34,835 bases of DNA, from assembly GCA_963676915.2 (NCBI GenBank), contig CAXXVK010000020.1, forward strand, positions 1 through 34,835. Reading direction: 5' to 3'. The DNA is from Myxococcota bacterium (GTDB lineage Bacteria; Myxococcota_A; SURF-8; G963663525). Shown one piece after another: positions 10,536 through 29,642 of this stretch (positions are counted from its first letter, which is position 1; every line of letters begins with the position of its first letter). The notes under the pieces were generated by a model that did not search any database, was not told the DNA's origin, and was given only the letters and a program-made list of their open reading frames with translations. The position numbers and the translations under genes are program-made.

Positions 10536-10565
10536 AAAAAAGGCTCCCGCCAGTTGCGAGAGCCT
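10536..10565 (-). terminator. Rho-independent terminator closing the glt-like cluster
   Basis: Minus strand AGGCTCTCGC-aactg-GCGGGAGCCT-TTTTT, 26 nt after the stop at 10592. Confidence 0.8.
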
Positions 10566-10591: not shown

Positions 10592-11476
10592 TCAGAAGGT
10601 ATACTTCAACGTCGGATTGGCTGCGACATACAGACTGGAAGCGTTGATCAGGTATCCAGCACCGATTTCAAAACCAACCGAGAAATGCCGCAGTCCCGTG
10701 TAGTACTCTACACCCAGACGTCCACCACCGAAGAAGTCCATCATGTCGCCATCTTTAAAGCCCGTGGTGTGCACGACAGGATCTCCGTTGGCGTCGGTAG
10801 TCTGGACCGTTTCGACACCATCGGCAGCCGCCATATTGAAGGCTAATCCACCCATCAGGTCGAGATAGGCTTCCAGACGTTTGGTCGCTGCGTATCGTGC
10901 ATGAAGCACAAAAGGTATCTGCATGATCAAGGCATCGCCTTTGATCACAGCGTTATCGACCGGTGCCAGCCGCCCCGTGGTAGGGGAGATTTCTTCAATC
11001 GTTCCAGCCTGGTTGATGGTTGCCAACACATCCAACTCCAACGCCAACCAACGATCGACGACATCGTAGCCGAAACCGAATCCCGTCATCATTCCAGGCT
11101 CGGACTGGTCCGCCATGTCACCCACCAAAAAAGTGGCGAAACCGAAGCGAGAACTCATGTAAAAGCCTTTGACCACTTCGACGATGTCCGGATCGCCCCA
11201 GTAGGTCTCGACACCGCGTCGGCTGGCCGAAACCGCCAGTTCCTGTCCGCCTTCGTCAGCGGCTTCCTCGTCGGCGTATTCATCTTCGGTAACGGCTTCT
11301 TCCTCGTCGAAGTACTCTTCGTCCATCGCCGGTTCTTCTTCGGCAGGCTCTTCATCGACCATTTCATCTTCGACGTATTCCTCGTCTTCCATCTCGTCCT
11401 GCGCAAACGCAGTAAAGGGAAGCAGCAAGGCGAAAAGCGCGAGAAGCATAGTGAATTCTAGGTGTTTTCTATTCAT
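10592..11476 (-). CDS. gltH: GltH/CglE/NfsH-like outer-membrane beta-barrel protein
   Basis: Signal peptide (..PFTAFA), acidic linker, barrel strands including GVEYYTGLRHFSVG resembling CglE, C-terminal LKYTF. Sits directly after gltG as in glt/nfs clusters. Alternative start is TTG 11485. Confidence 0.7.
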   Translation of the reverse strand: MNRKHLEFTMLLALFALLLPFTAFAQDEMEDEEYVEDEMVDEEPAEEEPAMDEEYFDEEEAVTEDEYADEEAADEGGQELAVSASRRGVETYWGDPDIVEVVKGFYMSSRFGFATFLVGDMADQSEPGMMTGFGFGYDVVDRWLALELDVLATINQAGTIEEISPTTGRLAPVDNAVIKGDALIMQIPFVLHARYAATKRLEAYLDLMGGLAFNMAAADGVETVQTTDANGDPVVHTTGFKDGDMMDFFGGGRLGVEYYTGLRHFSVGFEIGAGYLINASSLYVAANPTLKYTF

Positions 11477-11521
11477 CAGATCCAACCATCGTGGTTAAAG
11501 GAAGTTCGACCTTCCGTTACG

Positions 11522-13582
11522 TTACTGGTTCTGGTTAAAGATGAACGGATAGTTGACGACAACGATACCGCCGCCCTTCGGTGCCGGGAACCGCAGCCGC
11601 TTGATAACGTTGGCTACGCAGCTTTCGACACTCGAGTTGCGCATGGTCGTAACCGAAACCATCGAGGACAACACGTTGCCACGCGGGCCGATCGTGAATT
11701 TGACCTTGATTTTACCGTACAGGCCCGGAGAACGCTGCAATTCTTTCTGGTAGCAGTAGCGAATCTGACTACGATGCTTCTGAATGATGCGGGCGATGAT
11801 GGATTTGTCCAACGAACCCTGAATCGTAGGAGATCCGGTGCGGATGTTGATGTTTCCGGAGCGCTTTTTCAGCTTTCCGCTGGCACCGATTCCGTAGCGA
11901 GCCGCGCCGCCGCGTCCGCCACCTCGTCCTCGGGTACCCAGTCCGCCGATACCGAGTGCAGCGCCACCGCCGCCCATACCGGCACCCATCATTCCGAGAC
12001 CGCCGACACCGCGCATATCCAAACCGGAGATACCTTCGAGCATACCGAGCGTTTTATCCAACCCGGCACCCAGGCCACCACCACCGAACAGGCGGTCCAT
12101 GGCTTCCATTCCGGTATCCAATGCACCGAGGATACCAGCGCCATCCACAACCCGATCTTCTTCGAGTCGCTTGCGGGCGTCACCTTCGGTTTTATCGACG
12201 ACGGCTTCGTCCTCGCCGATCTTTCCTTCATCACCCATGGCCGTATCTTCGGAATCCCGGATATCGATTTTTTCTTCTTCCGGCTCTTCGATATCGTCCT
12301 CGTCATCCATCGGTTCAAGGATGAACTTGGCGATACGTTCTGGAGCATCGAGGATATCCGCAATTTCCGGAGGCGGCATGGTCGTCAGTTGAATGTAAAA
12401 CAGCACGAACAGTGTGTACAGAAGGCCGAACAATCCGACGATCGGATATTCGAGATCTTTTGTGAACGGTGCTTTTTTGTATCCCGCCGGGGGTACCCAA
12501 CGAACGTAGTATTGTACTTCATCGAAATCGACCGTCACCGCAGAACCGGGCGCGACATCAATGCTATATGAATTGGAAGATTTCTTCTGAGCCTTGTTTT
12601 TGCTGACCAACTCTTCGAAAGAATAGCTATCGTCACCTTCTTGATAGCGCCCCTTCATGCTCTTCGTGAAATTCAACGTAGCCGATTTTCCGTTGCCGGC
12701 AAACAATTCAAAGGGCTTGTCGTCATCGGGAAGGTGATCCTGCCGCACGAAGAAGTCCGCACCCTTTTCACCAACCAGAATGCTGGGAGCTTTCGAGTAG
12801 TGAAGCATGTCCATCAGCATATTGTTCCAGAGGATCTCACGAACCTCGAAAACCTGCTGCTTCGACGTAGAACGCTCCACCTTCTCGGGAATCAACTCCA
12901 TGGTGTAGCGAGACTTGCGTTTGCGCTTGCGTGCCTCGGCCTTGGCTTTCTCGAAGGCGAGCTTTTTCTTTTCGAGAAGATCGTCTCCAGTCGCCTCTTT
13001 CGAAGCGTCCTTCTTTTCTTCCTTGGCGTCTTCAGCGTCCTTTTCCTCTTCTTCAGAGGTTTCCTCGCTTTTCGCCTCGACCGCTTCTTTCGTTTCCTTG
13101 GAAGCGTCTTTCTTCTCTTCGACCTTCTGCTCTTTTTTCTTCTCGTCTTTTTTCTTCATAGGGGGTTCCGGTTCGCTTGGTTTGGTATCTTCCTTCGCCG
13201 TCTCTTCCGAAGCGGCGGCTTCCGGTTTTTCCTCGTCGGCGGGTTCGGGTTCGTTTTTTTCTTCTTTTAGATCGTACCCTACGTCCACCACTTCTATCGT
13301 TGCCGATCCGATACGGATCGTATCGCCTTTTTTCAAATCGAATTTGCTGGTTTTCTCGTCGTTGACGAACGTCCCTTTTTCGCTACCGAGATCCATCAGG
13401 GAAAAAACATCGCCTCGCGAACTATCCAGCATCACATGAACATCCGAAATGTCTTTTCCGGATAATTTCAGCTCCGAGCTTTTTCCGCACCCGATGGTCA
13501 CGGAACCCTGCTCGAAACGGAGCGTTCGTTCGCCCGAATCATCCTTTACATTTAACTGGATGCCAAGTTTTTTGTCCGCCAT
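11522..13582 (-). CDS. gltG: GltG/PglI/NfsG-like protein: FHA domain, K/E-rich linker, one TM helix, Gly-rich segment, TonB-like (AgmX/PglI) C-terminal domain
   Basis: FHA motifs (VTIG, ISDVH, DLGSEKGTFVN), TM helix IVGLFGLLYTLFVLFYI, Gly-rich tract, and C-terminus GSLDKSII..IRYCYQKEL..GKIKVKFTIG..RFPAPKGGGIVVVNYPFIF. Confidence 0.88.
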   Translation of the reverse strand: MADKKLGIQLNVKDDSGERTLRFEQGSVTIGCGKSSELKLSGKDISDVHVMLDSSRGDVFSLMDLGSEKGTFVNDEKTSKFDLKKGDTIRIGSATIEVVDVGYDLKEEKNEPEPADEEKPEAAASEETAKEDTKPSEPEPPMKKKDEKKKEQKVEEKKDASKETKEAVEAKSEETSEEEEKDAEDAKEEKKDASKEATGDDLLEKKKLAFEKAKAEARKRKRKSRYTMELIPEKVERSTSKQQVFEVREILWNNMLMDMLHYSKAPSILVGEKGADFFVRQDHLPDDDKPFELFAGNGKSATLNFTKSMKGRYQEGDDSYSFEELVSKNKAQKKSSNSYSIDVAPGSAVTVDFDEVQYYVRWVPPAGYKKAPFTKDLEYPIVGLFGLLYTLFVLFYIQLTTMPPPEIADILDAPERIAKFILEPMDDEDDIEEPEEEKIDIRDSEDTAMGDEGKIGEDEAVVDKTEGDARKRLEEDRVVDGAGILGALDTGMEAMDRLFGGGGLGAGLDKTLGMLEGISGLDMRGVGGLGMMGAGMGGGGAALGIGGLGTRGRGGGRGGAARYGIGASGKLKKRSGNINIRTGSPTIQGSLDKSIIARIIQKHRSQIRYCYQKELQRSPGLYGKIKVKFTIGPRGNVLSSMVSVTTMRNSSVESCVANVIKRLRFPAPKGGGIVVVNYPFIFNQNQ

Positions 13583-13715
13583 GATGCTTTCTTTCGTCGT
13601 GCTTATTGATACCTGAGAGTAAAAAGATGTTCAGGCATCTATCGAACGACACCAGTCTTTATACCTACCGAACACTTGTTTTCCAAGCGCTCATTACAAC
13701 GTTTCGTATTTCGCT

Positions 13716-13970
13716 TCAGTTAAGGTCGTCAACCGACTTGAACATTTCCGCTTCGAAATCTTTTCGCACCTTGATCAACGAATCGAATTTTCGTTTTTTA
13801 CGCTCGAAGAAGTAATCACCCGTCGGTTTTTTCAGTTCACCTTCGATCAACAGATCTTCGAAGTCGATTACGGTTTTCTTCTTGTATTGAACATCCTGAG
13901 CCGATGCGGGACCAGCCACCAGAACCAATACAATGGCCATCAAGAATACCAACAAAAATTTTTTCATCAT
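13716..13970 (-). CDS. gltF: GltF/CglF/NfsF-like small exported protein
   Basis: Signal peptide plus YKKKTVIDFEDLLIEGELKKPTG..KFDSLIKVRKDF, matching my recollection of CglF. Lies between gltE and gltG, with a strong GGGAGG RBS. Confidence 0.85.
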   Translation of the reverse strand: MMKKFLLVFLMAIVLVLVAGPASAQDVQYKKKTVIDFEDLLIEGELKKPTGDYFFERKKRKFDSLIKVRKDFEAEMFKSVDDLN

Positions 13971-14095
13971 AACCTCCCTTTGGGAGTTCTCTCATCTACA
14001 ATTACGATGCCAAGAGACCGTACAACCGGTCGGTTTTTCACAAAACCGCACCATTTTATCCATTCAATAGCGATTTTTCGCTATTTTGAACGACG

Positions 14096-15814
14096 TTACT
14101 GAGCCGGAGTAGCTTCCGCCGGGGGAACTTCCGCAGGTTTTTCCTCGGGCTTCGCCTCTGCCGGAGGTTGCTCCGCAGGTTTTTCCTCGGGCTTCGCCTC
14201 TGCCGGAGGTTGCTCCGCAGGTTTTTCCTCGGGTTTCGCCTCTGCGGGAGGTTGTTCTGCAGGTTTTTCCTCAGGTTTCGCCTCTGCCGGAGGTTGCTCC
14301 GCAGGTTTTTCCTCGGGCTTCGCCTCTGCCGGAGGTTGCTCCGCAGGTTTTTCCTCGGGTTTCGCCTCTGCCGGAGGTTGTTCTGCAGGTTTTTCCTCAG
14401 GTTTCGCCTCTGCCGGAGGTTGCTCCGCAGGTTTTTCCTCGGGTTTCGCCTCTGCCGGGGGTTGCTCCGCAGGTTGCTCGGCCGGTTGTTCACCTTCCTG
14501 AACCTCAGCCGGAGGCTGATCGGCAGGAGCTTCTTCACCCTCTGCGGGAGGCTGTTGACCTTCTTCCGGCGGCGCTTCGGTCTTCGGACCTACCGGCGGA
14601 GGAGTCGGTTTCTTCTCTTCAATGACTTCAACCTTCTTGCACTCGAAGAATTCGATGAAATTCTTCGCCTGTGTATTGCGTTTTTCGTCTTCGAGATTCA
14701 AAGAAAGGAATTTCTTGAACTGAGCATCCGCGTTTTTCTTGTCATACAGATGATCGCAGTAAAGTGCACCAAGACTGAACAGTGCATAAGGATTCTCGGG
14801 TTGAGCCTTGAGCACTTTCAAGTACAGTTTTTCAGACATCTTCAGTTCGCCGTAGCCTCTCAAAGCCTGGGCCAAACCAAGGGTAGCTTCCAGGTTTTCG
14901 GGATCTTCGGCCAAAACACGTTGATAATGCTCGCGAGCATGTTTCCAGTCGCGACCTGCCACACAGATGTGACCGAGATTCAAGTTGGCCGCCGTCAACG
15001 TCTTGTCGATTTTGAAAGCTTTGCGGAAGTTGCTGACCGCTCGGTTCTTTTCACCCATTTTCAGGTAGATAAGACCTAAGTTGTTGTAAAGACCGGCATC
15101 TTCGGGACGATTCGTGTTTTTCTGCGCCTGGATACCATTGGCGGTCACCATACGAGAAAGAAGAACCTTATCCTGCGCCAGATAAATCAACCCCAGGTTG
15201 TTGAAGGCGCCGGCGTGGGCGGGATCGAGCATGAAAATCTGCCGGATGTACTTGAGTGCATTGTCCCAATCTTTGCGCTGACGGTAAATCGTAGCGATAT
15301 TGTTACGAACATTCAAGCTGTCTGGATTCGCCTCGGCTTGTTTCTGAAAGAATTCCAAGGCTTTATCCTGTTCGCCCATCATCATGTAGACTTTGCCTTT
15401 GGCGAGAATCAACTCTTCGTTGGTGGGATCTTTCTCCAGCAACATGTCAATTTTCGGCATAGCCTGATCGAAGCGACGCATTTTGACGTAAATCACCGCA
15501 ATATTGAAGTCCATGTCGTCGATGTTCGGAACATGCTTTCTCGCTTCATCGTACAATTCAAGCACGCGCTCGTAATTGACATCGGACTTTTCAAGCTCTT
15601 CCTTCGCCAGCTTCAGTGCATTTCCGGCCATATTTTCCGGGGTTTGCACCACAATACACTTGGCGGCTCGACAGGCCTTATACGGTCCGCAGTCACTATC
15701 GGTCATACATTCGGGCGGTGGGCCTTGAGGTTTGTCTTCTCCTCCACAGGCACCAAGCGCCGTAACGATCACGGCAAGCAAAAGCAGGGTGATAATCCGC
15801 GCTTTGATCGACAT
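14096..15814 (-). CDS. gltE: GltE/AglT/NfsE-like TPR lipoprotein with a C-terminal Pro/Glu tandem repeat
   Basis: Start set at ATG 15814 (AGGAG RBS; MSIKARIITLLLLAVIVTALGA-C lipobox). Multiple TPRs (FNNLGLIYL, YNNLGLIYL, NLNLGHICV). Lies between gltD and gltF. Confidence 0.8.
   Translation of the reverse strand: MSIKARIITLLLLAVIVTALGACGGEDKPQGPPPECMTDSDCGPYKACRAAKCIVVQTPENMAGNALKLAKEELEKSDVNYERVLELYDEARKHVPNIDDMDFNIAVIYVKMRRFDQAMPKIDMLLEKDPTNEELILAKGKVYMMMGEQDKALEFFQKQAEANPDSLNVRNNIATIYRQRKDWDNALKYIRQIFMLDPAHAGAFNNLGLIYLAQDKVLLSRMVTANGIQAQKNTNRPEDAGLYNNLGLIYLKMGEKNRAVSNFRKAFKIDKTLTAANLNLGHICVAGRDWKHAREHYQRVLAEDPENLEATLGLAQALRGYGELKMSEKLYLKVLKAQPENPYALFSLGALYCDHLYDKKNADAQFKKFLSLNLEDEKRNTQAKNFIEFFECKKVEVIEEKKPTPPPVGPKTEAPPEEGQQPPAEGEEAPADQPPAEVQEGEQPAEQPAEQPPAEAKPEEKPAEQPPAEAKPEEKPAEQPPAEAKPEEKPAEQPPAEAKPEEKPAEQPPAEAKPEEKPAEQPPAEAKPEEKPAEQPPAEAKPEEKPAEQPPAEAKPEEKPAEVPPAEATPAQ
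14138..14473 (-). repeat. Eight tandem 42-bp units encoding PAEQPPAEAKPEEK
   Basis: 336 bp equals 8 x 42 bp. The peptide is identical in every unit and only synonymous positions differ. Confidence 0.97.
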
Positions 15815-15877
15815 CTCGGCTCCTTGAACGTTTGCTTTTTCAGCTTCCTGAAAATTCATGGGAGTATTCATGTTTCG

Positions 15878-18800
15878 TTACCATACAGTCGCTTGCGCAC
15901 CATTAAACGCCGTTTTCTCGGCTTCGGGAGCGCTCTCGATCGGCTTCGGCTCCGGTCCTTCAGACTCTTCTTCCTTCATCTCCGGTTCGACCTCTTCCAG
16001 AGCAGGAGAATCCGGGGAGTCGGGAAGTTTCAACGCTTTGAATCGAGCCATGTACCAGGAATCGCTTTCGAAACCAGGCTCGGGAGCGAATTCTTTGGCC
16101 GGAGGATAGACATCCGGTACGAGGATGCTGAGTTGATCCAGCGAATCCATCGAGTACTTGTTGTAAACACCGAGTTTGTACGAAGTTTTTACGCAACGTT
16201 CCCAGAACCCGATCGCTTCGATTTCCGCCGGTTTACCGATGCGTTCCATCACGGAATCGACATATCGGACGTACAGGTCGTCCGGATTCTCGAATTCCAT
16301 GAAGTACGGCGGCATTTCGGAGTTGTAAATGGCAACCGACAATTCTCTGAACACAACGCCCAGCTTATACAGAGAAGCCAGCGTGTATTTGGTGGATTTC
16401 AGCTTGAGAATTTCAAGATATTGAAGCTTCAGGGAGTTGGCCATCTCGACCTTGGACGTCAACTTGTCCTTCATCTTCGTATCCCATTTTTTGATCTTCT
16501 TCGACGTCCATTCCCAGGGATTGTAATTGACGATCAGCTCGATTTCCTTGAATTCCTTCAGCTTCGGCTCGATTTTGCGGAAGTGCGTCAGAGCAATGGC
16601 GTCACGAGCTTCCTGCCCCAAGGCATAGCCTTCCTCGATATCGCAATATCCGAGCTTGTAAATGGTCTGGTACGTGGCCTCTTTGGCTTTGTAGTTTTTC
16701 ACACGGGGATGTTCGTAAATATCGAGCAACTCCAGGTGCGCGGCGAAAATCCGGTTCGGTTCGCCACGAATCTGACCACGTTTTTCTACGTTTCCATCTT
16801 TGTCGAACTTCGGCCAGGTAATGTCATTCTTACGGGATTTGAGGTATGCGTTGAAAGCATCGTAGGCAGGGAACACTTTGTCCTGCTCCATCCACATAAT
16901 ACCGAAAGTGAAGCGCATTTTGTCTTTTTGATCTTCGTCTTCAATCGACTTCATGTACTTCTTTTTGTATTCGATCGCTTTGGCGGTATTTCCGAGGTTT
17001 TCGTGGAAAATCGCCGCATTGTACAAAGCTTCGTCTTTGTGTTTCCCTTTGGGGAATTTTTTCGTGTACTCGTCGAACTGTGTGACGGCTTTGTCGAACA
17101 TAGCCATGGCCATGTAGTTCAAACCGATCTTGTAGTGGACATCCTCACGATACACGGATTTCGGATAGGTTTTCAAAAGCAGGTTCTGCTGATCGATGGC
17201 CTGCAAGATCCGACCGGCCGCAACAAGGTGAACACCGGCGTTGTACATGGCCATTTCACGGAATTTCGACCGCTTGAATTCTTCGGTAAACTGCTGATAT
17301 TCCTGAGCGGCCTGATACCATTTCTCATAAGCCGGGCGCGTCCGAGGCGTTAGCAGCAGAGCTTCACACTCGGTGGTTTCCACCTTCTTGAAGGTAACCT
17401 TCTCGTTGAGTTCGCGAAGTTCGCGTCGGAAACCGGCCTTGCGGGTCAGGCGGCGGTTCTTCAGGTATTCCCGAACTTTGGTGTACAACGCACGCCAATC
17501 GCGCTTGAGGTTGAGGGAGTCGAGAATCAGGTTGGCGCTGTACTCGGCCAGCCGGTGGGTCGTGTACTCGTTGGTGATCATCTCAAAACGACTGACCGCC
17601 TGATCGAAGTTGTTGTGCGTGTAGTGAATGATGGCGACTTTGTAAATGATGTCGATTTTGTACTTCGACTTCGGAATGTTGTCGATGTACAAGTCGCAAG
17701 CCTTCACGAAGTTTGTAACGCTGTCGGACATCTTGCGCGGTTTAAACTTCTCCTGGAAGGCCACGTTTTCTTCGCAACGCTCGACATGAGTCTTTTCGCG
17801 TTCCTTTTTGACGTGGGCTTCTTTGAGTTTGTACCCTTTATCCACACGACGGGATTTCTTCTTGGTTTCGTTCATCCAGTCGCTGATTTCTTCGTGCACC
17901 AGCTTTTCGAGAGACAAAATGGCAGAATAGGAAGCTTCTTCGAAGTGCTTACCCTTTCGGTCCATCTCGGCAACCTTCATGTAGCCTTTACCGGCACGGT
18001 CGTAGTATTCCTTCATGCTTTCGCAACTGGCAGTTCGTGCGGCAGCATCGCCACCACGGCGGTGACAGGCACGATCGTAGTTGTGAGCACGGGTCCACAG
18101 CAATTCGGCATAGTTCCAGCTAACATCGTAGAACTTATCGGATTTACTGAAGTATTGCATGTAAATGTCGTACAGTTCCTGAGTACGATCCCACACTTCT
18201 TCCCGATTGATCTTGCGGGCTTCCTTGTGGTAATCGACCACGGTACGAATCAACATCCGTTCGGCTGTAATCCATGCTTCGTGAATCGCGTCCGGTTCTT
18301 TGACGTGGTTCGCTTCGACCCACTTGGATTCTTCCGGCGGCTTGGCATATTCGACGAGATTGATGATTTCCTTCGTGGTGTTTTCCTTGTCTCCTTTGTT
18401 GGAGAAGGCTTCCACGATGCGCATCTGGAATTCCACGTTGTCCAAGTGCAGCGGATAATCGTGAATCAGGCGTCTGTACACCATGATCGCACCGTCGAGT
18501 TTTCCTTGGTTGGTCAGAATGTCGCCCAAGCGAACCAACATCATACGGAAGTATTTTTTACCGCCGACGGTCATAAAGTACTCTTCGGCTTCGCGGACGA
18601 TTTCTTTCTGGTCTTTCTTTTCCTGGTCGGCATAGGCCATAACCAAGTCGCGCAGGGCTTCTTCCTTCAGAGTAATGTTCGAAGCCGTTCCCTGTGCGTC
18701 GGACCACTCGACCACTTCCTGGAAGTTCTTGATGGACGTGTCGTAGGCACCGAGGTTGTACTCGCACCACGCCAGCTTGTACTTGGCATAACCCCACAGT

Positions 18801-19588
18801 TTGTTGGTCTGATCGTATTCCAGCACCTTCCTGAATGCGGGCATGGCGTCGTAAACATTGTTATTACCGAAATAGTAATCGCCGATGGCCATGTACGCTT
18901 CGGGAGCGAAATCGCTTTTGGGATATTCCGTCACGAGTTTGCGGAAATAATCGTTACCTTTGGCAGCCTGACCGATTTCCCGAAGGTTCGACCCCATGAA
19001 GAAGTAAGCATCGTCCATCTCGGAATATTGCGGGTACCGATCGATGATGAATTCGCAGACCGTCACGGCTTTACGGTTGTATCGCAGCCAGAGATCGGGG
19101 TCCGGCTCTTTGGGCGGCTCGCCTTCCTGGTTGGCCTTGAACCATTTCTCCATGCGCTTCTGGTGCGCTTCCATCTTATCGATATTGAGGCGCTTGGCTT
19201 TTTCGGAATACAGCTCGGCCAAACGACGCAAGGTCTGGGCGGTCTGATACCGCTTGAGAACGTTGAGCAGCTTGTTGATGGTGATATCGATGCTGCGACC
19301 GACTTTGGAGTCCATCATCGAGACGTCTTCTTCGACCATCAGCAGTTTCAGGTCGATCAACTGATCGTCCTGCTCGCCTTTGAGCAGCTTGTCCATTTCG
19401 TCTTCGCCGCTCTTTTTCTTTTGATCCTCTTTCTTGGTCCGTCGCTTGCGACGTTTCCGCTTCTTCGTGTCCTGAGCGTAGGCCGATTGATGGCTGGCGA
19501 CAATCACCTGGTCCATCACGAACGATCCTGCGCAAAACGCGATAAATACAAGCCAAAAGATAGCAAGTCTGAGCACTCTAGCTGCCAT
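15878..19588 (-). CDS. gltD: GltD/AgmU/NfsD-like large TPR protein
   Basis: 1236 aa with a hydrophobic N-terminus and many TPR/BamD-like repeats (LVTEYPKSDFAPEAYMAIGDYYF, YAKYKLAWCEYN, LKEEALRDLV, AEYSANLILDSLN). Lies upstream of gltE-F-G. Confidence 0.85.
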   Translation of the reverse strand: MAARVLRLAIFWLVFIAFCAGSFVMDQVIVASHQSAYAQDTKKRKRRKRRTKKEDQKKKSGEDEMDKLLKGEQDDQLIDLKLLMVEEDVSMMDSKVGRSIDITINKLLNVLKRYQTAQTLRRLAELYSEKAKRLNIDKMEAHQKRMEKWFKANQEGEPPKEPDPDLWLRYNRKAVTVCEFIIDRYPQYSEMDDAYFFMGSNLREIGQAAKGNDYFRKLVTEYPKSDFAPEAYMAIGDYYFGNNNVYDAMPAFRKVLEYDQTNKLWGYAKYKLAWCEYNLGAYDTSIKNFQEVVEWSDAQGTASNITLKEEALRDLVMAYADQEKKDQKEIVREAEEYFMTVGGKKYFRMMLVRLGDILTNQGKLDGAIMVYRRLIHDYPLHLDNVEFQMRIVEAFSNKGDKENTTKEIINLVEYAKPPEESKWVEANHVKEPDAIHEAWITAERMLIRTVVDYHKEARKINREEVWDRTQELYDIYMQYFSKSDKFYDVSWNYAELLWTRAHNYDRACHRRGGDAAARTASCESMKEYYDRAGKGYMKVAEMDRKGKHFEEASYSAILSLEKLVHEEISDWMNETKKKSRRVDKGYKLKEAHVKKEREKTHVERCEENVAFQEKFKPRKMSDSVTNFVKACDLYIDNIPKSKYKIDIIYKVAIIHYTHNNFDQAVSRFEMITNEYTTHRLAEYSANLILDSLNLKRDWRALYTKVREYLKNRRLTRKAGFRRELRELNEKVTFKKVETTECEALLLTPRTRPAYEKWYQAAQEYQQFTEEFKRSKFREMAMYNAGVHLVAAGRILQAIDQQNLLLKTYPKSVYREDVHYKIGLNYMAMAMFDKAVTQFDEYTKKFPKGKHKDEALYNAAIFHENLGNTAKAIEYKKKYMKSIEDEDQKDKMRFTFGIMWMEQDKVFPAYDAFNAYLKSRKNDITWPKFDKDGNVEKRGQIRGEPNRIFAAHLELLDIYEHPRVKNYKAKEATYQTIYKLGYCDIEEGYALGQEARDAIALTHFRKIEPKLKEFKEIELIVNYNPWEWTSKKIKKWDTKMKDKLTSKVEMANSLKLQYLEILKLKSTKYTLASLYKLGVVFRELSVAIYNSEMPPYFMEFENPDDLYVRYVDSVMERIGKPAEIEAIGFWERCVKTSYKLGVYNKYSMDSLDQLSILVPDVYPPAKEFAPEPGFESDSWYMARFKALKLPDSPDSPALEEVEPEMKEEESEGPEPKPIESAPEAEKTAFNGAQATVW

Positions 19589-19640
19589 AACGTTACCCGT
19601 TCGTCGTTTTGAATTGGGCGGATGAGCGATAGTTAATTAT

Positions 19641-21290
19641 TTATTCGCACTTCTGGTCAACGGTCATCAGGTAATACCCCAACTCGTCGTACCAGTATTC
19701 ACCGTCGAAAGGCCACCATTGGAAGTCGTCCCGGACGGCCGGCGTACGAAGTTTTTCCATTTCTTCGGAGATTTCCCCTACTCCCATGGCGTCCATGTCG
19801 AGTCCCTGGATGTCCCGCTTCTGAGCCTGCTCCATCATGGCGCTCGAAACTTCGACGTCCACGTTCTGCGCGTTACCGATCAGGTTACGCAGCATACGAT
19901 GGGTTTCGGCAAGACCGCGCATCAGGTATTTGCCTGCACGCTTGCGCAAGTTCAACTGCTGACGCTCCATGCGTCGAACCGACGTTTCGTGAAAAGAGGT
20001 CTGGAGAAATTCCTTGGGAGCGTCTTCCAACGTCGCGAATTCCTTATCGAACTGCTGAATGTGCAGATACATTTTCGTGAAGCTGGAGTCGTTCAACAGG
20101 TGCGTAAGAATCTGAATGGACAGGGCCGTGGTCTGCTTGTTGGGATGCTGGTAAGCCTCTTTGTACTGCCAGACCATATCGTCAAAGACGGTTTCGGACG
20201 GCTTGCTTCGCCACTCCGACAAGTAGGCTGCTGCATCTTGTTCCATTGGCTCGAACTTGCTAAAGAACCAATTAAGCTTGCGTTCGGCTTCACGATACCG
20301 GCAAAGCTGGAACCAGGTAATAGCTTCGATAAGGTGCGTTTCAGGAATGAACCGCGTGTCGAAAAACGGCGAGGCCAGCGTCAGGCTGGTACCCAATGAA
20401 ACGTCGAAACGACCGATCAACGTCGCGGCCCAAGTCTTCTGGAACAGGGAGTCGAACCAACGGACGTTCTGACGGCTCACTTTGTCGTAATATTGAATCG
20501 CCGTGTAGAAAATCTGGTCTTTGTCTTCGTCGCCCGCATCGTGACCGGCAGCGTAATACAATTGACCGGTGGCGATTTTGCTCATTTCCTTGACTTTTTG
20601 CGATTCACCGAACTCCACCGCAACTTCGGGAAGTTTTTGAATCATGTCAAAGGTGGTTTTCGCCTTGTCATATTCTTTGCGCTTGATCTCGATGATACCG
20701 CGGAAGTAATTGGCTTTCGCGTAAAACACCGAGTTTTCCTGCACTTGGCTGAACTTGATGTAGGCTTCGTCGATCTGTCCCTGCTGGAAATACATCCGGC
20801 CCAGCAAGTACACCAGCTCGTTCTGGAATTTCTGGGGGAAACTCGTCAACTCTACGGAACTGAGCACCGCGAAGATGACGTCTTCGTCACCGGTTTCGTA
20901 CGTGATCATCAACAAGCGAATCAGTGCCGGTGTGAAGTACTGCGAGTTGTCCGGTCCTTTGAAGAGGATGTCGTTGGACAACAGGTAAGTACAGGGTTTG
21001 TACATTCCAAGGCGATACAGAGACTCGGCGAAATAGAACGTGGCCGTGTCGTGAATCCCACGGAACTGCGGTTCCTGGGTGACCTTGAAGAAACCGATGG
21101 CTGCCGTCCAGTAGTCTTCGTTATTGTACGCCATGATGGAATCCCGCACGACCGGAATCTGCATGACTTCCGGGCTGGGATTGATCGTGTCGTAACGAGC
21201 GAGAAGCTCTTCACGGGTTTCCACTCCGGCGCAACCGGCGAACAGTATCGGCAAAACCCATAGCAACATGTAAGAAAAGTGCTTATTCAT
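19641..21290 (-). CDS. gltC: GltC/NfsC-like TPR protein with a lipobox
   Basis: C-terminal signature WWPFDGEYWYDELGYY..C, internal LASPFF..FIPE motif, TPR helices, and N-terminus ILFAG-C. Alternative start is ATG 21296. Confidence 0.85.
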   Translation of the reverse strand: MNKHFSYMLLWVLPILFAGCAGVETREELLARYDTINPSPEVMQIPVVRDSIMAYNNEDYWTAAIGFFKVTQEPQFRGIHDTATFYFAESLYRLGMYKPCTYLLSNDILFKGPDNSQYFTPALIRLLMITYETGDEDVIFAVLSSVELTSFPQKFQNELVYLLGRMYFQQGQIDEAYIKFSQVQENSVFYAKANYFRGIIEIKRKEYDKAKTTFDMIQKLPEVAVEFGESQKVKEMSKIATGQLYYAAGHDAGDEDKDQIFYTAIQYYDKVSRQNVRWFDSLFQKTWAATLIGRFDVSLGTSLTLASPFFDTRFIPETHLIEAITWFQLCRYREAERKLNWFFSKFEPMEQDAAAYLSEWRSKPSETVFDDMVWQYKEAYQHPNKQTTALSIQILTHLLNDSSFTKMYLHIQQFDKEFATLEDAPKEFLQTSFHETSVRRMERQQLNLRKRAGKYLMRGLAETHRMLRNLIGNAQNVDVEVSSAMMEQAQKRDIQGLDMDAMGVGEISEEMEKLRTPAVRDDFQWWPFDGEYWYDELGYYLMTVDQKCE

Positions 21291-21372
21291 CAGCATTCCC
21301 TATCGTGGTGACCGCCTCCTAAAAGAAAGAGGCGGCGTCCCTTGACGGTTAATCCGGTTTCTAACTTGGCTC

Positions 21373-22245
21373 TCAGTTCGGCGGGAGATGGAAACTCAGA
21401 CCCACCGTTCCAAACAGCACGTTGCGCAGCAGGGTTCCGCCGCGCTTATCACCGCGGACACTCATGTTCCCGACAGTTTGCTCACCCTGGGTGGCGGGAT
21501 CGCGGGTATCATCTTCGGCCAACAGAGCATAGTAGGTGACATCCACACGCAGGGACAACCAACGGTTGAAGTACAGGTTGGTCATCATGCCCACTTCAGG
21601 AGCGGGATGGATGTCGCCATTGTCAAGACCCATCGCCGAGGCACCGGCATAGATGCCGAGGTCATAGTGGGCGATGATGCTGGAAAGCAGCGCGAATTTT
21701 CCGTACATGGGATACCAGACGAAATCGGCGCCGCCCCACCAGGTCAGAGGCGAGTTCTTGACGTTCTCCGGGTCCAGGCCACCTTCTTCGATGGTGTCGA
21801 GCAGGTCTTTATCGAAGCTCTGCACGTACGCACCGGTCGCCTGCACGCCGAACATTTCATGAAAACGGAAGTTGTAACGACCACCCACGGCGAGATTCCA
21901 GGTCAGGCCGTCGAGAGCGTTGATTCCGCTGAACACGTTGACTTCGTGTTTCATGAGTTGCGGGTACAGTTTTTTCTGGACCACTTTCGCTTTCTTTTCG
22001 AGCGGAATGGTCACTTCTTTCCGCTTGGTGCGTTCCTTGGCGGAACTGCCACCCTCCTCCTCTACGGCTTCTTCTTCGCCCATTATACCGGTGAGATCCA
22101 TGGACTCGTCCATTTCCTCGCCGTAGGTTTCATCCGTTTCCGCCGCATAATCCTCGCCGGCCTCTTCCTGGGCAATGGCCGAAAAAGGCAGGAGAATCAG
22201 GAATGTGGCGAATATCCCAATCGTCATCGTTTTTAGACTGTTCAT
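21373..22245 (-). CDS. GltA/GltB (NfsA/B)-like myxobacterial-type outer-membrane beta-barrel protein
   Basis: Signal peptide (..PFSAIA), acidic linker, KVVQKKLY..HE motif, WYPMYGKFALL..HYD motif, terminal GLSFHLP strand. Directly upstream of gltC. I cannot separate GltA from GltB by eye. Start set at ATG 22245 (GAGGG RBS). Confidence 0.8.
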   Translation of the reverse strand: MNSLKTMTIGIFATFLILLPFSAIAQEEAGEDYAAETDETYGEEMDESMDLTGIMGEEEAVEEEGGSSAKERTKRKEVTIPLEKKAKVVQKKLYPQLMKHEVNVFSGINALDGLTWNLAVGGRYNFRFHEMFGVQATGAYVQSFDKDLLDTIEEGGLDPENVKNSPLTWWGGADFVWYPMYGKFALLSSIIAHYDLGIYAGASAMGLDNGDIHPAPEVGMMTNLYFNRWLSLRVDVTYYALLAEDDTRDPATQGEQTVGNMSVRGDKRGGTLLRNVLFGTVGLSFHLPPN

Positions 22246-22643
22246 GACCCTCACTCTGAGAAATAAGGTTGCCGATTCAAGATTCATCAACAATAACTTG
22301 GTCTTCCATATTGGCCCAAGGCTACAGCATTACGCTGTTTGCCAGTATTTCATTTTCCTGTTTGACCCGTACCTTTGCGGGTAAAAGACAGCTTGGCATA
22401 ACATGAAGCGGCAAGCGACGCAAGGTTTTTTTAGAGCGTTAAGTTCGGAGAAATCTCATAAAAATCAGATAAATAGACGTAACGCACATCCTTGAAACCA
22501 CTTGCATTCCTTCATTTTTTCTCTTCGCTCCCCATCGCCTCGCAAGAGCCAATCCAACAGGAAAAGGAAAAAGCGCTTCACACTTAGAAACGCACCCTTG
22601 GGAGTGGACGTGTTTTACCCGATCGAATCATTGAAAAAAAATG

Positions 22644-22671
22644 AAAAACGGGGATTTTCATCCCCGTTTTT
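22644..22671 (-). terminator. Terminator after the 403-aa Cys-rich lipoprotein gene
   Basis: AAAAACGGGGAT-tttc-ATCCCCGTTTTT, followed on the minus strand by further U-runs, 20 nt past the stop at 22692. Confidence 0.75.
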
Positions 22672-22691: not shown

Positions 22692-23903
22692 TCACTTTGA
22701 TGACGGATATTCACAGGCATTCGAAGAATCCTGGGTTTCCGCATTGCAGATCAGGCTTTCGGGGAAGCATCGTCCGAAAACGTAGGGGTAAGGATCGCCC
22801 CCATCTTCCGGCGTGACCCACTGAGCGCAGGCGTCACCCAACAGCAAGGAATCCTGGCAGACCATCAGCCCATCTTTTCCAACGCGCTTGTCGGTGAAGC
22901 AGCGCCTCGAAAGCGCCGGATTGTCGGGATCGCCCGAGTCTACCTGCTGACAGGCTGCCAAAGCCTTGTCGGGGTCGTCCCGGTTGGCTTCGTCCAGTTC
23001 ACAGCGTTGATTGTAGGAGCAGAGCAGTTCGTTGCACGTCCCGTTCGGACCTGGGCTGATACAAGTTACGCAATCGTAAAATTTTTCGCATTGAATCGAA
23101 TCGGGATCTTCTTCAATAGAAGGAATCACGACCCAGTCGTCACCCTCGCCATCATTGTCGGTATCCACGCATTCGATCGCTTTTTCGGATTTGATCGCTC
23201 CGAAGGCCAGACAGGTTGGATTGCCGGGGTCGATGTTGTCGCAACAATCGATATTGCCCAACGTGCATTCGATGGCTTTGAGAATGCACTCGTTGTCGAT
23301 ACAAGCCATTTTTTCGCCGGTGCAATCCGCATCGACGCAGCATTCGTACTCGTCGGGACAAAGGTTGTCTTTGGGACGACACATCTTCTGATAGCAGACC
23401 TTGTTTTCCTTGTCGTCATCCGTTTCCCAGCACTGATAGTCCGCACAGCATTCCTCGCCGGGCAGACATTCTACCTTTTCGATGCATTCATGCAGCACAC
23501 AGGTCTGGGTCGAAGAACATTCGGAATCGCTGCAACAGACATATTCACAAGGAACGACCAACTCGTCCTGCTCGCTACCGCCACCCTGATCGTCGTCGGT
23601 GTCTCCGTCCGTATTCGGATTAGTACCCGATACACGACCCGCAGGGCCACAGCTATAATTGTCACAGGAACCGTCTACGCACTCGCTGTCTTCCTGACAG
23701 AACCACGGTGCTACATAGCAAGCGCCTTCAAAACATTTCCATTCGGACAAAGCGTCGCATTCGGCGTTTCCCTGACAGCAGTCCTGCGCCACGGTACAAG
23801 AACCGTCCCATTCGAATCCGCCGTCATCGTCTCCGCAACTGAACACGACGATTCCTATGGAAGCAACGAGGCAAGCTATCAAAATCATATGGATTTTCTT
23901 CAT
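22692..23903 (-). CDS. Cysteine-rich acidic lipoprotein, function unknown
   Basis: Lipobox VVFS-C, repeated CC-x-D-x-x-C..C-x4-C modules (CCSDSEC, CCADYQC, CCVDADC), GGGAG RBS. Confidence 0.8.
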   Translation of the reverse strand: MKKIHMILIACLVASIGIVVFSCGDDDGGFEWDGSCTVAQDCCQGNAECDALSEWKCFEGACYVAPWFCQEDSECVDGSCDNYSCGPAGRVSGTNPNTDGDTDDDQGGGSEQDELVVPCEYVCCSDSECSSTQTCVLHECIEKVECLPGEECCADYQCWETDDDKENKVCYQKMCRPKDNLCPDEYECCVDADCTGEKMACIDNECILKAIECTLGNIDCCDNIDPGNPTCLAFGAIKSEKAIECVDTDNDGEGDDWVVIPSIEEDPDSIQCEKFYDCVTCISPGPNGTCNELLCSYNQRCELDEANRDDPDKALAACQQVDSGDPDNPALSRRCFTDKRVGKDGLMVCQDSLLLGDACAQWVTPEDGGDPYPYVFGRCFPESLICNAETQDSSNACEYPSSK

Positions 23904-23957
23904 GATGCTCTCCCAAATCGAAGGGATGCCTATCCCGTTCGTTAAAAAAACCGAAAT

Positions 23958-23986
23958 ATTTTATCATGAGCCGTAGTATCTGGCAA
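23958..23986 (-). promoter_or_regulatory. Putative sigma70 promoter for the 403-aa gene
   Basis: Minus strand TTGCCA-17 nt-TAAAAT with an extended -10 TGn. Confidence 0.55.
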
Positions 23987-24045
23987 ACCCCTTCGGCAGA
24001 AATCGCCGAAAACGCTCGCCTTCTTCAGACCATGAGATATCCTGA

Positions 24046-26529: not shown

Positions 26530-28115
26530 AGCTGGTCTTCCTTATACAATTTCGCGCGATTTTCGATTTTGCGGATCACCGCATGCACCGGTTGATCCTG
26601 GGAATCGAACAGTTGAATCACCACGATTTCATGCGCGTTGAAATTGGCGACAAGCGCATAAGCGCCCTCTGCGGCTTCATACGTAACAAGATCGTAAGGT
26701 CTTGAATATTTTACAAAAATTCCAGGTTCCGAAATAAACGCCTCGGGGGAAAGATCCACCACGTCGGCGACCTGCCGAGTCCGTGTATCAATGGCTTCGA
26801 GATCGTCCGTTCCGTAGATCGTCAGATAAAGCATGTCCCCGTAGGTCGCCAGATTAGCGGGCTGACTGTCCACCTCGATGAAATCAACAGCCTCGTTGGT
26901 TTCGCAGGTATCCGATTGGCCGATCTTCTGTTGATCGTCACAACCCTCCGTTTTTACACGGGTATCTAAAAATACAACCGCAGGAGAAGCCGTACCGGAT
27001 TCCAACTGACGAACGGCTGTATACAGGGTTTCACCATCTTGGGAAAACACCAGCCCACGTATGTCGGCAGCTTCGCTGACCGCGACTTCATCCACACGCA
27101 GTCCCAGCCCCGCACCTTCATTGCGATACGGACGTAACACCCCGAGATAACGACTGTTTTTGTGGGAAATATAGACCGTCCCCGTAATCGGAGAAATCAC
27201 CGCCTGGTTTCCGCCCTGACTGAACTTGCGCTCGGTGACTTTCCGTAGCGGCTGGATATCTTCGCAGAGGTATCCTTCGGGACAGCCAAGCCGAATCACC
27301 CGACCCTCGGCGTCGTATTCCGAACGATCCACTTCGCAATATGTCGCGCAATAGGATCGACCGGTGCGGAAGTTTTCGAGACAGGCGTTGTCGCCGATTT
27401 CCTCAACCAACTTCTCGTTTTCATTGACGAAATACGTCACACCACCGCATTCGGCATCGGTCGAGCAATCGCCGCACAAGGCTCCGGCGTCCACCGACGC
27501 AGGACATTGCATCGTTTCGGGAACGCAGTACCGTAAATTTTCCCGCGCTTCCGAGATCGTCCCGATTTCGTTTTCCAGAATCGTCACTTCACCGCCGGAA
27601 ACGTGTGTCACGTATACGTAGCGATCGTTTTCGTCGATACCGATGCCGTAAGGATCTTTGGAAACCGGTATCGTCCGGTAATTGTTCCAGATTTTCCCGG
27701 TTTCGGCCAAAGGCTGGTCTGCGATTTCCGTATCGATATCCACCACCACGACGTGATCGTTAAGCTGAGCTTCCAGTTCGTCCGTCGCGTTCAAAGGACC
27801 ACGAACGGCCACATACAGCCGGGTACCCGAATGATTGAAGCGGCATTCTCCCCCGAACGTGCCGATGGGCATTGTCCAGCGGTCGATGATTTCGTACGTG
27901 GTCAGATCGATGAAAATCACCGAACCGTTGTTGTACGCCTGATTGAAATTGGCGTTGACCACGGCGGCGTAACGACCCGCAGGATGCACGTCCACGCTGA
28001 TCGGGAAATGAATGATGTCATCCGGCATCTCAACGCCCGGCTGGTCGGTAATGCATCCGGTAAGCGCTGCAGCCAGCAGGACAAGAAGAACCGCAAATAT
28101 CGTACGATGAGCCAT
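26526..28115 (-). CDS. YncE-like beta-propeller lipoprotein with a Cys-rich insertion
   Basis: Lipobox ALTG-C, blades FPISVDVHPAGRYAAVVNANF, DPYGIGID, IRGLVFSQDGETLY, VDSQPANLA. Carries an internal 10-Cys segment. GGAG RBS. Confidence 0.8.
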   Translation of the reverse strand: MAHRTIFAVLLVLLAAALTGCITDQPGVEMPDDIIHFPISVDVHPAGRYAAVVNANFNQAYNNGSVIFIDLTTYEIIDRWTMPIGTFGGECRFNHSGTRLYVAVRGPLNATDELEAQLNDHVVVVDIDTEIADQPLAETGKIWNNYRTIPVSKDPYGIGIDENDRYVYVTHVSGGEVTILENEIGTISEARENLRYCVPETMQCPASVDAGALCGDCSTDAECGGVTYFVNENEKLVEEIGDNACLENFRTGRSYCATYCEVDRSEYDAEGRVIRLGCPEGYLCEDIQPLRKVTERKFSQGGNQAVISPITGTVYISHKNSRYLGVLRPYRNEGAGLGLRVDEVAVSEAADIRGLVFSQDGETLYTAVRQLESGTASPAVVFLDTRVKTEGCDDQQKIGQSDTCETNEAVDFIEVDSQPANLATYGDMLYLTIYGTDDLEAIDTRTRQVADVVDLSPEAFISEPGIFVKYSRPYDLVTYEAAEGAYALVANFNAHEIVVIQLFDSQDQPVHAVIRKIENRAKLYKEDQL

Positions 28116-28276
28116 TTTCGCTCCGAAATGTTGAAACGTCGAACCGCAACGTAGCGGTTTCGACCCGGGATGTCAATTTCAAGCGGTCAATATAACCGGA
28201 CATAGATTCGACGGCAAACCTTTCCGTTTTTCGCGATGTCGCTTTTTCCAATTCGCCCCTTCCCTATTTTCGTATA

Positions 28277-28303
28277 TTTCGTGTATAATTTTTTCACACG
28301 AAA
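28277..28303. promoter_or_regulatory. Inverted repeat overlapping a TATAAT box in a divergent intergenic region (candidate operator)
   Basis: TTTCGTGT-11 nt-ACACGAAA, with TATAAT at 28284-28289. Confidence 0.4.
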
Positions 28304-28337
28304 CACGCAATAGCATGCGTAAAAAGGAGAATCCGAC

Positions 28338-29303: not shown

Positions 29304-29642
29304 GTTCTTCAAACGAATAACGTTTTGTCGGCGCAAGGCTCCCGCCCCAATGCCGTTGGGCTAACCCGGAATATTCATGAAGAATCTACTCCGACTTGAA
29401 AACTCTCGATCTTTCTCTCGTTTCCCGATTTTCATCCTCGACAGACTGTCCAGTATGCCTGCGGGTGAAAATCGCTCCAACTTCGCGAAAGTTCTTCGGT
29501 TTCCGGCGTCTCGCTACGATTCTCATGAATATTTCGGGCTAAAGTCTATTAGCGGGAACCGTCACGGTCTTCGATTCGAAGAATCGATGGCCGTGACACC
29601 CACCTGAAAATAGCTTTTTCGAGCTGCAACGAGAATAATCCT

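Follow-up and report, generated by a model that had tools for sequence, protein, structure and literature searches.

Gene content, order and limits of the operon

Seven co-oriented open reading frames lie on the minus strand at 10592-22293 of the window (the whole stretch of DNA that was analysed, 34,835 nucleotides), where the original prediction had placed them. In A-to-H order, the intergenic gaps measure 76, 52, 6, 125, 133, and 36 bases. Hairpins with T runs are present on both sides of the seven genes, at 22671-22644 and 10565-10541, and the block is therefore delimited on both sides. The genes and features are as follows.

22644-22671, minus strand: terminator-like hairpin of the upstream gene (22692-23903), with a 12-pair stem and then a T run; upstream operon boundary
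21373-22293, minus strand: A, GltA/GltB-type outer-membrane beta-barrel, the sole A/B-type barrel of the locus (TIGR04565 OMP_myx_plus, 69.7 bits; cut-off 60)
19641-21296, minus strand: C, GltC/NfsC-type TPR protein (NF033756 GltC, 211.5 bits; cut-off 450)
15878-19588, minus strand: D, GltD/NfsD-type giant TPR protein of 1236 aa (TPR families; TPR_6, 80.6 bits)
14096-15871, minus strand: E, GltE-type TPR lipoprotein (NF033758 GltE, 87.8 bits; cut-off 225)
14130-14475, minus strand: tandem repeat inside gltE, 42 bases x 8.2 copies (Tandem Repeats Finder score 615, 94% matches)
13716-13970, minus strand: F, GltF/CglF-type small exported protein of 84 aa (NF033764 CglF, 70.3 bits; cut-off 90)
11522-13582, minus strand: G, GltG/NfsG-type inner-membrane protein (NF033760 GltG, 351.6 bits over 18-647 of 650 model positions; cut-off 650)
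10592-11485, minus strand: H, GltH/CglE-type outer-membrane beta-barrel (NF033755 CglE, 94.2 bits; cut-off 70)
10541-10565, minus strand: intrinsic-terminator-like hairpin closing the operon just after H, with a 10-pair stem (7 GC pairs) and then TTTTTT

The predicted arrangement of seven co-oriented genes with short gaps (6-133 bases) and an end terminator (hairpin 10565-10541) was thus confirmed. The block had been predicted to end at 22245; the frame of A reaches 22293, but 22245 is an ATG at codon 17, ahead of the signal peptide, and is the likely start. Every operon protein has a single hydrophobic segment near its N-terminus, and in G one lies at residues 381-399; in A and H, the segment is of the signal type (residues 23-41 and 9-27, respectively). 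H also has an acidic N-terminal linker, in which Asp and Glu account for 34% of residues 1-110. C is probably a lipoprotein, as judged from an LFAGC sequence read by eye, and E has a lipobox (LGAC, residues 39-42, read by eye) with a likely start at 15814. The tail of E is repetitive and rich in Pro, Glu, and Lys, the tandem repeat in its gene encodes 14-residue PAEQPPAEAKPEEK-type repeats, and the alignment with a gltE homologue from the same genus spans only 445 of 591 residues. D, which is presumed to be a periplasmic pillar, is without a standard lipobox. G is laid out as an FHA domain (PF00498, 49.1 bits), an acidic linker, one transmembrane helix, a Gly-rich linker, and a TonB-like AgmX/PglI C-terminal domain (NF033768, 109.7 bits; cut-off 40).

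The barrel set of the locus comprises one A/B-type and one H-type barrel, and the A and B pair together with GltH was not encountered. Using phmmer, which a very divergent barrel could escape, no second A/B-type barrel was detected between the terminators or upstream in relatives of family f4. No motor gene lies within or adjoining the operon. Downstream of it, the family scan identified smc (1066.8 bits) and ftsY (344.7 bits). This adjacency is confined to the same genus and is absent in four other genomes of the same taxonomic order. The original prediction was correct in that neither gltI nor gltJ adjoins the locus; its view that smc replaces them does not stand, given the genus-limited smc-ftsY linkage and the presence, in 10 of 10 genomes of the taxonomic order, of a GltJ-like protein encoded at another site. 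A suggested link to the large lipoproteins encoded nearby fared no better, as these genes neighbour the operon within the genus only.

Homology, gene order and phylogenetic position

Family matches identified six of the seven proteins. The NCBIfam equivalog cut-offs for GltC, GltE, CglF, and GltG are not reached by C, E, F, and G, whereas the CglE cut-off is passed by H. The matches of D in the family scan are to TPR models, with no Glt model among them; D was assigned by these and by phmmer matches to the D genes in the two loci, Glt and Nfs, of a Myxococcus-like genome (228 and 231 bits). F shares 38-56% identity with 26 F proteins, some of which belong to Glt and Nfs loci. The locus thus encodes the anticipated Glt/Nfs-type trans-envelope complex, at one locus and in A-to-H order.

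The WPFDGEYWxDELG-type motif that had been noticed in C was located as WPFDGEYWYDELG at residues 528-540, toward the C-terminus. In relaxed form (W-x-[FYI]-x-x-E-[YF]-W-x-D-E-[LIV]-G-x-Y, derived from the GltC alignment of this analysis), it was recovered in 55 of the 64 GltC-like proteins in that alignment, among them every Glt and Nfs row shown. A complex model of C (residues 23-551) and F (residues 25-84) scored 0.82, compared with 0.00 for the best control; 58 of 80 solved complexes attained the mark used for this score, as did 2 of 110 mismatched pairs. Model runs agree in 48% or more of contacts, and partner pLDDT is at least 47. In the predicted model, the C-terminal helix of F (residues 61-84) is held in the TPR groove of C. 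The model supports binding of F to C, and in the available text of PMC11761067 the same GltF-GltC contact is proposed for M. xanthus by AlphaFold modelling.

A GltD profile found 535 relatives among GTDB species genomes. In the best 80 of these loci, C-D-E are collinear in 65 and C-D-E-F-G in 48, and a GltG-family match is present in 36 of 41 sampled relatives. All five genomes examined within the taxonomic order retain the block A-C-D-E-F-G-H, with varying flanks. A collinear single locus is the common form in uncultured Myxococcota-type genomes, and Luciano et al. 2011 (PMC3169522, available in part) had previously reported expanded core complexes outside Myxococcus. The operon had been singled out as the best candidate for an undescribed system, which is contradicted by the number of GltD relatives, by collinear order being the rule in the best 80 loci, and by this earlier description. 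An alternative reading is that of a new kind of system altogether, merely resembling Glt; it could draw on the deep separate clade described below with its long stem, on GltD being at most 30% identical to anything outside its own taxonomic order, and on several Myxococcus partners (CglB, GltI) that were not found. We regard it as very improbable and already disfavoured, since a Glt/Nfs counterpart can be recognised for each of the seven genes, with the order preserved, the predicted F-C contact agrees with the M. xanthus model, and GltG-family matches are frequent among the sampled relatives. The system is a real and fairly ordinary member of a widespread family.

In a tree of concatenated C, D, E, and G, the genomes of the taxonomic order form their own deep clade outside the clade that contains both Glt and Nfs. 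The Glt and Nfs rows form a 22-row clade with an SH-aLRT of 98 that excludes the operon's clade, and the stem of the latter is long, at 0.7 substitutions per site. In AU tests, with groups named after the tree was seen, grouping the taxonomic order with the Nfs rows was rejected (log-likelihood difference 488.6, p-AU 0.0025), as was a clade with the Glt rows (p 0.00014). The system lies outside both the Glt and the Nfs clade of Myxococcus-type genomes, in line with the original prediction.

These results bear on whether the operon encodes an Nfs-like surface-polymer organiser, which would drag secreted polysaccharide around the cell for a coat or capsule, for example in a resting-cell stage, instead of moving the cell. 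The single-locus A-to-H order without I, J, and K matches Nfs as far as it is described in the available part of PMC3858216. Against the GltG and GltC models, G (351.6 bits) and C (211.5 bits) also score like the second paralogues of Nfs-type loci (335-369 and 207-221 bits, respectively). On contig C70, the Agl-class motor is followed by genes for a Wza-type exporter and a porin, and CglB, the adhesin, was found in none of four genomes of the taxonomic order. However, the AU test speaks against grouping with Nfs, and no polysaccharide genes are linked to the operon in any of the taxonomic order's three families. Moreover, a 5.0-Mb Myxococcia genome with equivalog-level GltG and GltC has A-A-C-D-E-F-G-H at one locus; therefore, contrary to the original prediction, the order is not specifically Nfs-like and does not discriminate. 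Taken together, a polymer organiser of this type appears decidedly unlikely.

Genome context and proposed working

The sole Agl-class motor of the genome (TolQ and two ExbD) is encoded on contig C70 within a second, "core" cluster, which consists of C-like, D-like, and E-like proteins, TolQ, two ExbD, and a G-like protein without FHA. The GltC motif is absent from the C-like protein of this cluster. The C70 motor groups with both TolQ and two-ExbD sets of the Myxococcus-like genome (support 98/96) and is closer to the set at 3.54 Mb than to the AglR candidate. From its position, we take the 3.54-Mb set to be of the MXAN_3003-5 type. In M. xanthus, the MXAN_3003-5 set is dispensable for motility and sporulation, and AglRQS is documented as serving two separate Glt-type complexes (PMC3858216, available in part). 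Of the partners named in the original prediction, a distant GltJ-like protein with a Zn-ribbon/TonB tail (86.6 bits; cut-off 450), unlinked to the operon, was recovered, as was the C70 set as a candidate motor, whereas CglB, GltI, and MglA/MglB were not. For GltI, the search for a homologue of its size returned no more than a TPR match of 65 bits, to an ORF of 729 aa. The source assembly, which is 90.8% complete, yielded neither MglA nor MglB; mglBA occurs in relatives, and MglA of the relative G003 matches the PDB MglA with 305.8 bits. The genome encodes flagellin and a flagellar stator, so the organism has another way to move. We know of no member of the operon's lineage in which gliding has been observed.

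It is conceivable, if rather unlikely, that the complex serves envelope maintenance or transport rather than movement, as an energised link of the Tol-Pal/TonB type that either stabilises the outer membrane or passes a substrate inward or outward via barrels A and H, which would be the ancestral core role. The matches of D to YbgF/CpoB and BamD-type TPR models, the TonB-like domain at the end of G, and the flagellar genes are consistent with such a role, and according to the part of Luciano et al. 2011 available (PMC3169522), core genes occur in non-gliding bacteria and have no known function. Against this, the operon has the "Group A" additions (A/B barrel, F, and H) that the same part of that study ties to motility and sporulation machines, the genome already holds a separate core cluster, and Bdellovibrio combines flagella with gliding (PMC13104615, available in part).

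We consider it fairly probable that the operon encodes an expanded Glt/Nfs-type envelope-spanning complex that shares an ancestor with Glt and Nfs and is a member of neither, with surface gliding, or the moving of a surface adhesin or polymer, as the likeliest use. Its product is most likely a force transducer of the TonB-like, proton-driven kind that serves gliding or surface transport in an uncultured, flagellated bacterium, probably of the GTDB phylum Myxococcota_A. Gene content and order, the limits of the operon, the homologies, the phylogenetic position, and the genome context are direct results of the analysis; by homology, we infer a force path, a motor, and a cargo. A TolQ/TolR-type proton channel encoded elsewhere in the genome would engage the transmembrane helix of GltG, and GltG, by way of its periplasmic linker and TonB-like C-terminal domain, would transmit force to the TPR pillar GltD, to which GltE may be attached. 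GltF may bridge to the GltC lipoprotein below the outer membrane, where GltC would dock barrels A and H. A surface-bound adhesin or polymer would then be moved along the cell, most likely resulting in surface gliding, by analogy with Bdellovibrio.

More tentatively, the operon may represent a third deep lineage of the Glt/Nfs machine, a minimal one of seven proteins in which the A/B-type barrel is single and for which neither CglB nor GltI was found, in a flagellated group, probably Myxococcota_A, without a clear AglRQS orthologue. Such a machine may run on the motor of the core cluster or on either of two TolQ-TolR pairs specific to the lineage (contigs C18 and C21), and it could preserve a function predating recruitment to gliding and spore-coat formation; we regard this proposal as fairly unlikely.

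To our knowledge, no proton-driven systems other than the Glt/Nfs machines carry cargo directionally across the bacterial surface. How they arose is a question to which the locus adds little by itself; the surrounding survey is more useful. The compact A-to-H operon is the usual form and the split Myxococcus arrangement the exception, and operons of this kind are frequent in a sister phylum to which ortholog-based surveys assign no A-motility genes. If a relative can be cultured, the seven-gene version without CglB, GltI, and a second barrel would be simpler for reconstitution and structural work.

Comparison with known systems

The operon shares with the M. xanthus Agl-Glt system (GltA-K, AglRQS, and CglB) homologues of GltA/B, C, D, E, F, G, and H, their domain plans (FHA-TM-TonB-like G, TPR proteins C, D, and E, and a small F), and the predicted insertion of an F helix into C (PMC11761067, available in part). 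The two differ in that the genes are at one locus here and split into the G1 and M1 clusters there, and in having one A/B barrel instead of two; in M. xanthus, GltA and GltB stabilise each other (same part of PMC11761067). CglB and a GltI-size protein were not found in the genome, the GltJ-like protein is distant and encoded away from the operon, and C, E, F, and G fall below the equivalog cut-offs. Like M. xanthus Nfs (NfsA-H), as described in the available part of PMC3858216, the operon is a single A-to-H unit without I, J, K, or its own motor, and its distance to the Glt models is like that of Nfs-locus paralogues. In contrast to Nfs, it has seven genes instead of eight because the second barrel is missing, and it does not branch with Nfs.

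The expanded core clusters of Bdellovibrio bacteriovorus (e.g., Bd0828-0838), by their description in the available part of PMC3169522, likewise contain A/B, C, D, E, F, and G in a flagellated organism outside Myxococcales without GltI and GltK. The Bd0828-0838 cluster includes aglRQS-like genes and is without GltH, whereas here GltH/CglE is present and the motor is encoded elsewhere. Bdellovibrio is without GltH, I, J, and K. Finally, the "core complex" of GltC, D, E, and G with AglRQS (Group B of Luciano et al. 2011) has one such cluster in the same genome, on C70. Compared with it, the operon has no motor genes and is extended by the barrels, by F, by an FHA domain on G, and by the C-terminal motif of GltC.

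Operon layout and flanking genes

The source assembly (5.18 Mb, 74 contigs) is estimated to be 90.8% complete, and the window is its entire 34.8-kb contig C20. Seven minus-strand open reading frames (A, C, D, E, F, G, and H, with A at the upstream end) fill positions 10592-22293, with intergenic gaps of 76, 52, 6, 125, 133, and 36 bases. The original prediction of a seven-gene operon of the Glt/Nfs type, that is, related to the Myxococcus xanthus gliding machine (Glt) and its spore-coat paralogue (Nfs), is confirmed: the frames lie where it had placed them, family scans back its gene calls, and terminator-like hairpins occur on both sides. Because one hairpin follows the last gene and another ends the preceding gene, the seven-gene block looks, from its sequence, like a single transcription unit.

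Features in and around the operon
10565-10541: strong terminator-like hairpin, after the last gene (H)
22671-22644: terminator-like hairpin, ending the preceding gene (22692-23903)
14130-14475: tandem repeat in gltE, 42 bases x 8.2 copies, 94% matches, coding for a Pro/Glu/Lys-rich tail at the end of E

Best family matches of the seven proteins (bits; model cut-off in brackets)
A: OMP_myx_plus, 69.7 (60)
C: GltC, 211.5 (450)
D: TPR only, no Glt model among its matches
E: GltE, 87.8 (225)
F: CglF, 70.3 (90)
G: GltG, 351.6 (650); AgmX/PglI tail, 109.7 (40); FHA, 49.1 (20.7)
H: CglE, 94.2 (70)

Residues 528-540 of C are the WPFDGEYWxDELG motif quoted in the original prediction. A lipobox is present in E and, read by eye, probably in C, and G contains one hydrophobic helix only (residues 381-399). 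The alignment of E with its same-genus homologue spans just 445 of 591 residues, so the length of the repeat tail probably varies.

Downstream of the operon lie smc and ftsY. A link of the operon to smc or to the large lipoproteins encoded nearby was considered, but among the genomes of the order compared, the same-genus genome is the only one to share smc-ftsY and the upstream lipoprotein genes. Another family of the order (f4) shows conserved flanks of a different kind, with FabK- and YchF-like genes among them, and the flanks of genome G003 differ from both, while the arrangement A-C-D-E-F-G-H is kept in five genomes (G001, G003, G004, G005, and G007). The changing flanks argue that the conserved unit is the seven genes and nothing more, and a link to the lipoproteins or smc is thus ruled out, as flank conservation occurs within the genus or within the family only. 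A second barrel upstream of A was also ruled out: the gene at 22692-23903 matches no family, and a terminator sets it off, and in family f4 the upstream genes are the FabK- and YchF-like ones. A minus-strand run at 22692-32399 comprises genes with few or no family matches (403, 827, 529, and 385 aa) followed by a 918-aa choice-of-anchor-D/ASH-domain protein; these genes are conserved in the same-genus genome only and are unlinked to the glt operon in other families.

Distribution and relation to Glt and Nfs

The relatives of the window's GltD-like protein comprise one at 90% identity, a dozen at 44-61%, and others at no more than 30%. A profile built from these relatives was searched against one-genome-per-species GTDB contigs and yielded 535 confirmed relatives, the best 80 of which are all from metagenome-assembled genomes (MAGs) labelled Myxococcota, Deltaproteobacteria, or mislabelled. 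When these 80 loci were scanned with the window's seven proteins, D had at least one collinear neighbour in 79, C-D-E was collinear in 65, C-D-E-F-G in 48, A-C-D-E-F-G in 28, and the full A-C-D-E-F-G-H in 12, all of which are lower bounds because contig ends cut many loci and A and H are weakly detectable. In a sample of the window's phylum, 36 of 41 genomes contained a GltG-family match (E <= 1e-20), none of them above the equivalog cut-off. Such loci are common but poorly annotated in the window's lineage.

Canonical GltG, scoring above the cut-off, was found in 0 of 201 in the window's phylum sample and in 0 of 150 in a sample centred on genome G203, and canonical references were taken instead from the class of a Myxococcia MAG (G356), around which 45 of 61 genomes scored above the GltG cut-off. 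In the large genomes of that class GltG occurs twice, at about 1050-1098 bits and as a full-length paralogue at 335-369 bits. Three such genomes carry the lower-scoring copy in an Nfs-type A-A-C-D-E-F-G-H locus and the higher-scoring one in a Glt-type D-E-F-G-H locus, whose C and two barrels are at other sites. In another genome of this class (5.0 Mb; GltG 798 bits, GltC 701 bits), all genes are gathered at one locus. A single-locus order is thus no mark of Nfs, and the gene order of the window cannot be called Nfs-like, as it originally was.

Trees were built from concatenated C, D, E, and G (2481 columns; FastTree with 68 rows, IQ-TREE under LG+G4 with 42 rows), using core-type paralogues of the source genome itself as the outgroup. 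The window's order forms one clade with a long stem (SH-aLRT 100), and Glt and Nfs both fall within a separate clade of 22 rows (SH-aLRT 98). Trees of this kind had been proposed as a check, and they place the window's proteins outside the Glt and Nfs clade; the AU test, with groups named after the tree was seen, rejected constraints joining the window's order to Nfs (cost 488.6 log-likelihood units, p-AU 0.0025) or to Glt (72.1 units, p-AU 0.00014). An apparent placement of the window's clade as the earliest branch is not secure, since long-branch attraction between its stem and the outgroup could produce it. In the same trees (loci L034, L044, L047, L051, L070, L071, and L091), loci from other, uncultured lineages cluster with the Glt-type loci of Myxococcus-like genomes and likewise with the Nfs-type ones; among these uncultured loci is L034, from a genome of the window's phylum. 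With MAG taxonomy taken as labelled, this grouping makes the Glt/Nfs split look older than the "recent duplication in a terminal branch" of Wartel et al. 2013 (PMC3858216).

Candidate motors and other partners in the genome

Features elsewhere in the source genome
C70:4958-20618 (L017, L117): in order, GltC-like, GltD-like (944 aa), GltE-like, TolQ-like, two long ExbD-like (246 and 209 aa), and GltG-like without FHA; then a BBP2_2 porin and a Wza-type polysaccharide exporter
C18:1-1067 (cut by the contig end) and C21:1623-2485: TolQ-TolR pairs
C51:17438-19351 (L115:2439-4352), minus strand: GltJ-like protein, 637 aa, GltJ model 86.6 bits (weak)
C43:76071-78570 (L116): two small exported proteins (162 and 168 aa), then a 469-aa TPR protein
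C46:13755-15552, C10:63198-63608, and C33:33649-34053: flagellin-type genes

The search for the AglRQS proton-channel motor returned one Agl-class set, that of the C70 cluster, which is the sole such motor of the genome. In a TolQ tree, its TolQ falls with the two TolQ+2ExbD sets of the Myxococcus-like reference genome (support 98/96). On position only, we take the set at 8.16 Mb to be AglRQS and that at 3.54 Mb to be MXAN_3003-5; the C70 protein is nearer the 3.54-Mb set, and a clear AglRQS orthologue is absent. Other channels comprise a Tol-Pal-type TolQ/TolR, an ExbB-ExbB-ExbD set, and flagellar MotA. The TolQ-TolR pairs on C18 and C21 belong to a lineage-specific clade without a Myxococcus-like counterpart and are candidate alternative motors for the operon. 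A same-strand TolQ/ExbD pair also occurs a few genes (~6 kb) upstream of A in 27 of the 80 related loci (L029-L087). The seven of these pairs included in the TolQ tree all cluster with generic TolQ sets outside the Agl class, and such pairs, which may represent Tol-Pal operons, were left out of the count of dedicated motors.

CglB was detected in none of four genomes of the order, against 589 bits in the Myxococcus-like genome, and the search for GltI returned no homologue of its size. A distant GltJ-like protein does exist: it starts with an MJ0042-type zinc ribbon and ends in a TonB-like tail of the AgmX/PglI type. It is kept in 10 of 10 genomes of the order, in none of them beside the glt operon, and its match to GltJ is weak. 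MglA and MglB were not found in this 90.8%-complete assembly, but the same-genus genome and three others of the order encode MglB, and in G003 the gene beside mglB is a clear MglA; their absence probably reflects an unassembled part of the genome. TraA (NF033759) was found in the Myxococcus-like genome only. The small C43 proteins consist of little beyond the AgmX/PglI tail (74.5 and 83.4 bits). One of the three flagellin-type genes adjoins the flagellar stator gene motA (310.9 bits, cut-off 237), and the source organism is probably flagellated, unlike cultured Myxococcia.

Proposed force path and comparison with known systems

The complex of C (residues 23-551) and F (residues 25-84), each supplied as an alignment, was predicted with a model score of 0.82 versus 0.00 for the best control; of solved complexes, 58 of 80 come up to that mark, and of mismatched pairs, 2 of 110. 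Between runs, agreement on contacts is 48% or higher, the partner's pLDDT is 47 or more, and residues 61-84 of F are predicted to sit in the TPR groove of C. The model supports but does not prove binding of F to C, and the same contact, itself modelled rather than solved, is described for GltF-GltC of M. xanthus (PMC11761067). By analogy with the M. xanthus model (PMC11761067), a TolQ/TolR-type channel would engage the GltG helix, the linker and TonB-like domain of GltG would engage GltD, GltE would bind GltD, GltF would bridge to GltC, and GltC would dock beneath barrels A and H. Both the motor and the cargo of the operon are ones that we infer.

Gliding or surface transport is the favoured function, on two grounds: the locus carries the "Group A" additions, by which machines for motility and sporulation differ from the core complex, and a core complex is already present in the genome, as the C70 cluster matches that of Luciano et al. 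2011 (PMC3169522). Rival readings stay alive, given that CglB, GltI, a second barrel, and a clear AglRQS orthologue are all lacking. What stands of the original interpretation is a Glt/Nfs-type complex outside the canonical clades; an undescribed system, an Nfs-like order, and links to smc or lipoproteins do not. Our literature search returned no paper on Glt-type loci specifically in Myxococcota_A, which is probably the phylum of the source genome and is the GTDB phylum to which a 2026 preprint (10.64898/2026.07.10.737566) assigns class UBA796, and supplements, notably that of Luciano et al. 2011, may list such arrangements. Expanded core complexes outside Myxococcus, the Glt/Nfs paralogy, and the shared AglRQS motor are already covered by Luciano et al. 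2011 (PMC3169522) and Wartel et al. 2013 (PMC3858216). With these and the 535 GltD relatives, the reading as an undescribed system is not supported: the locus adds a new and divergent member to a known family.
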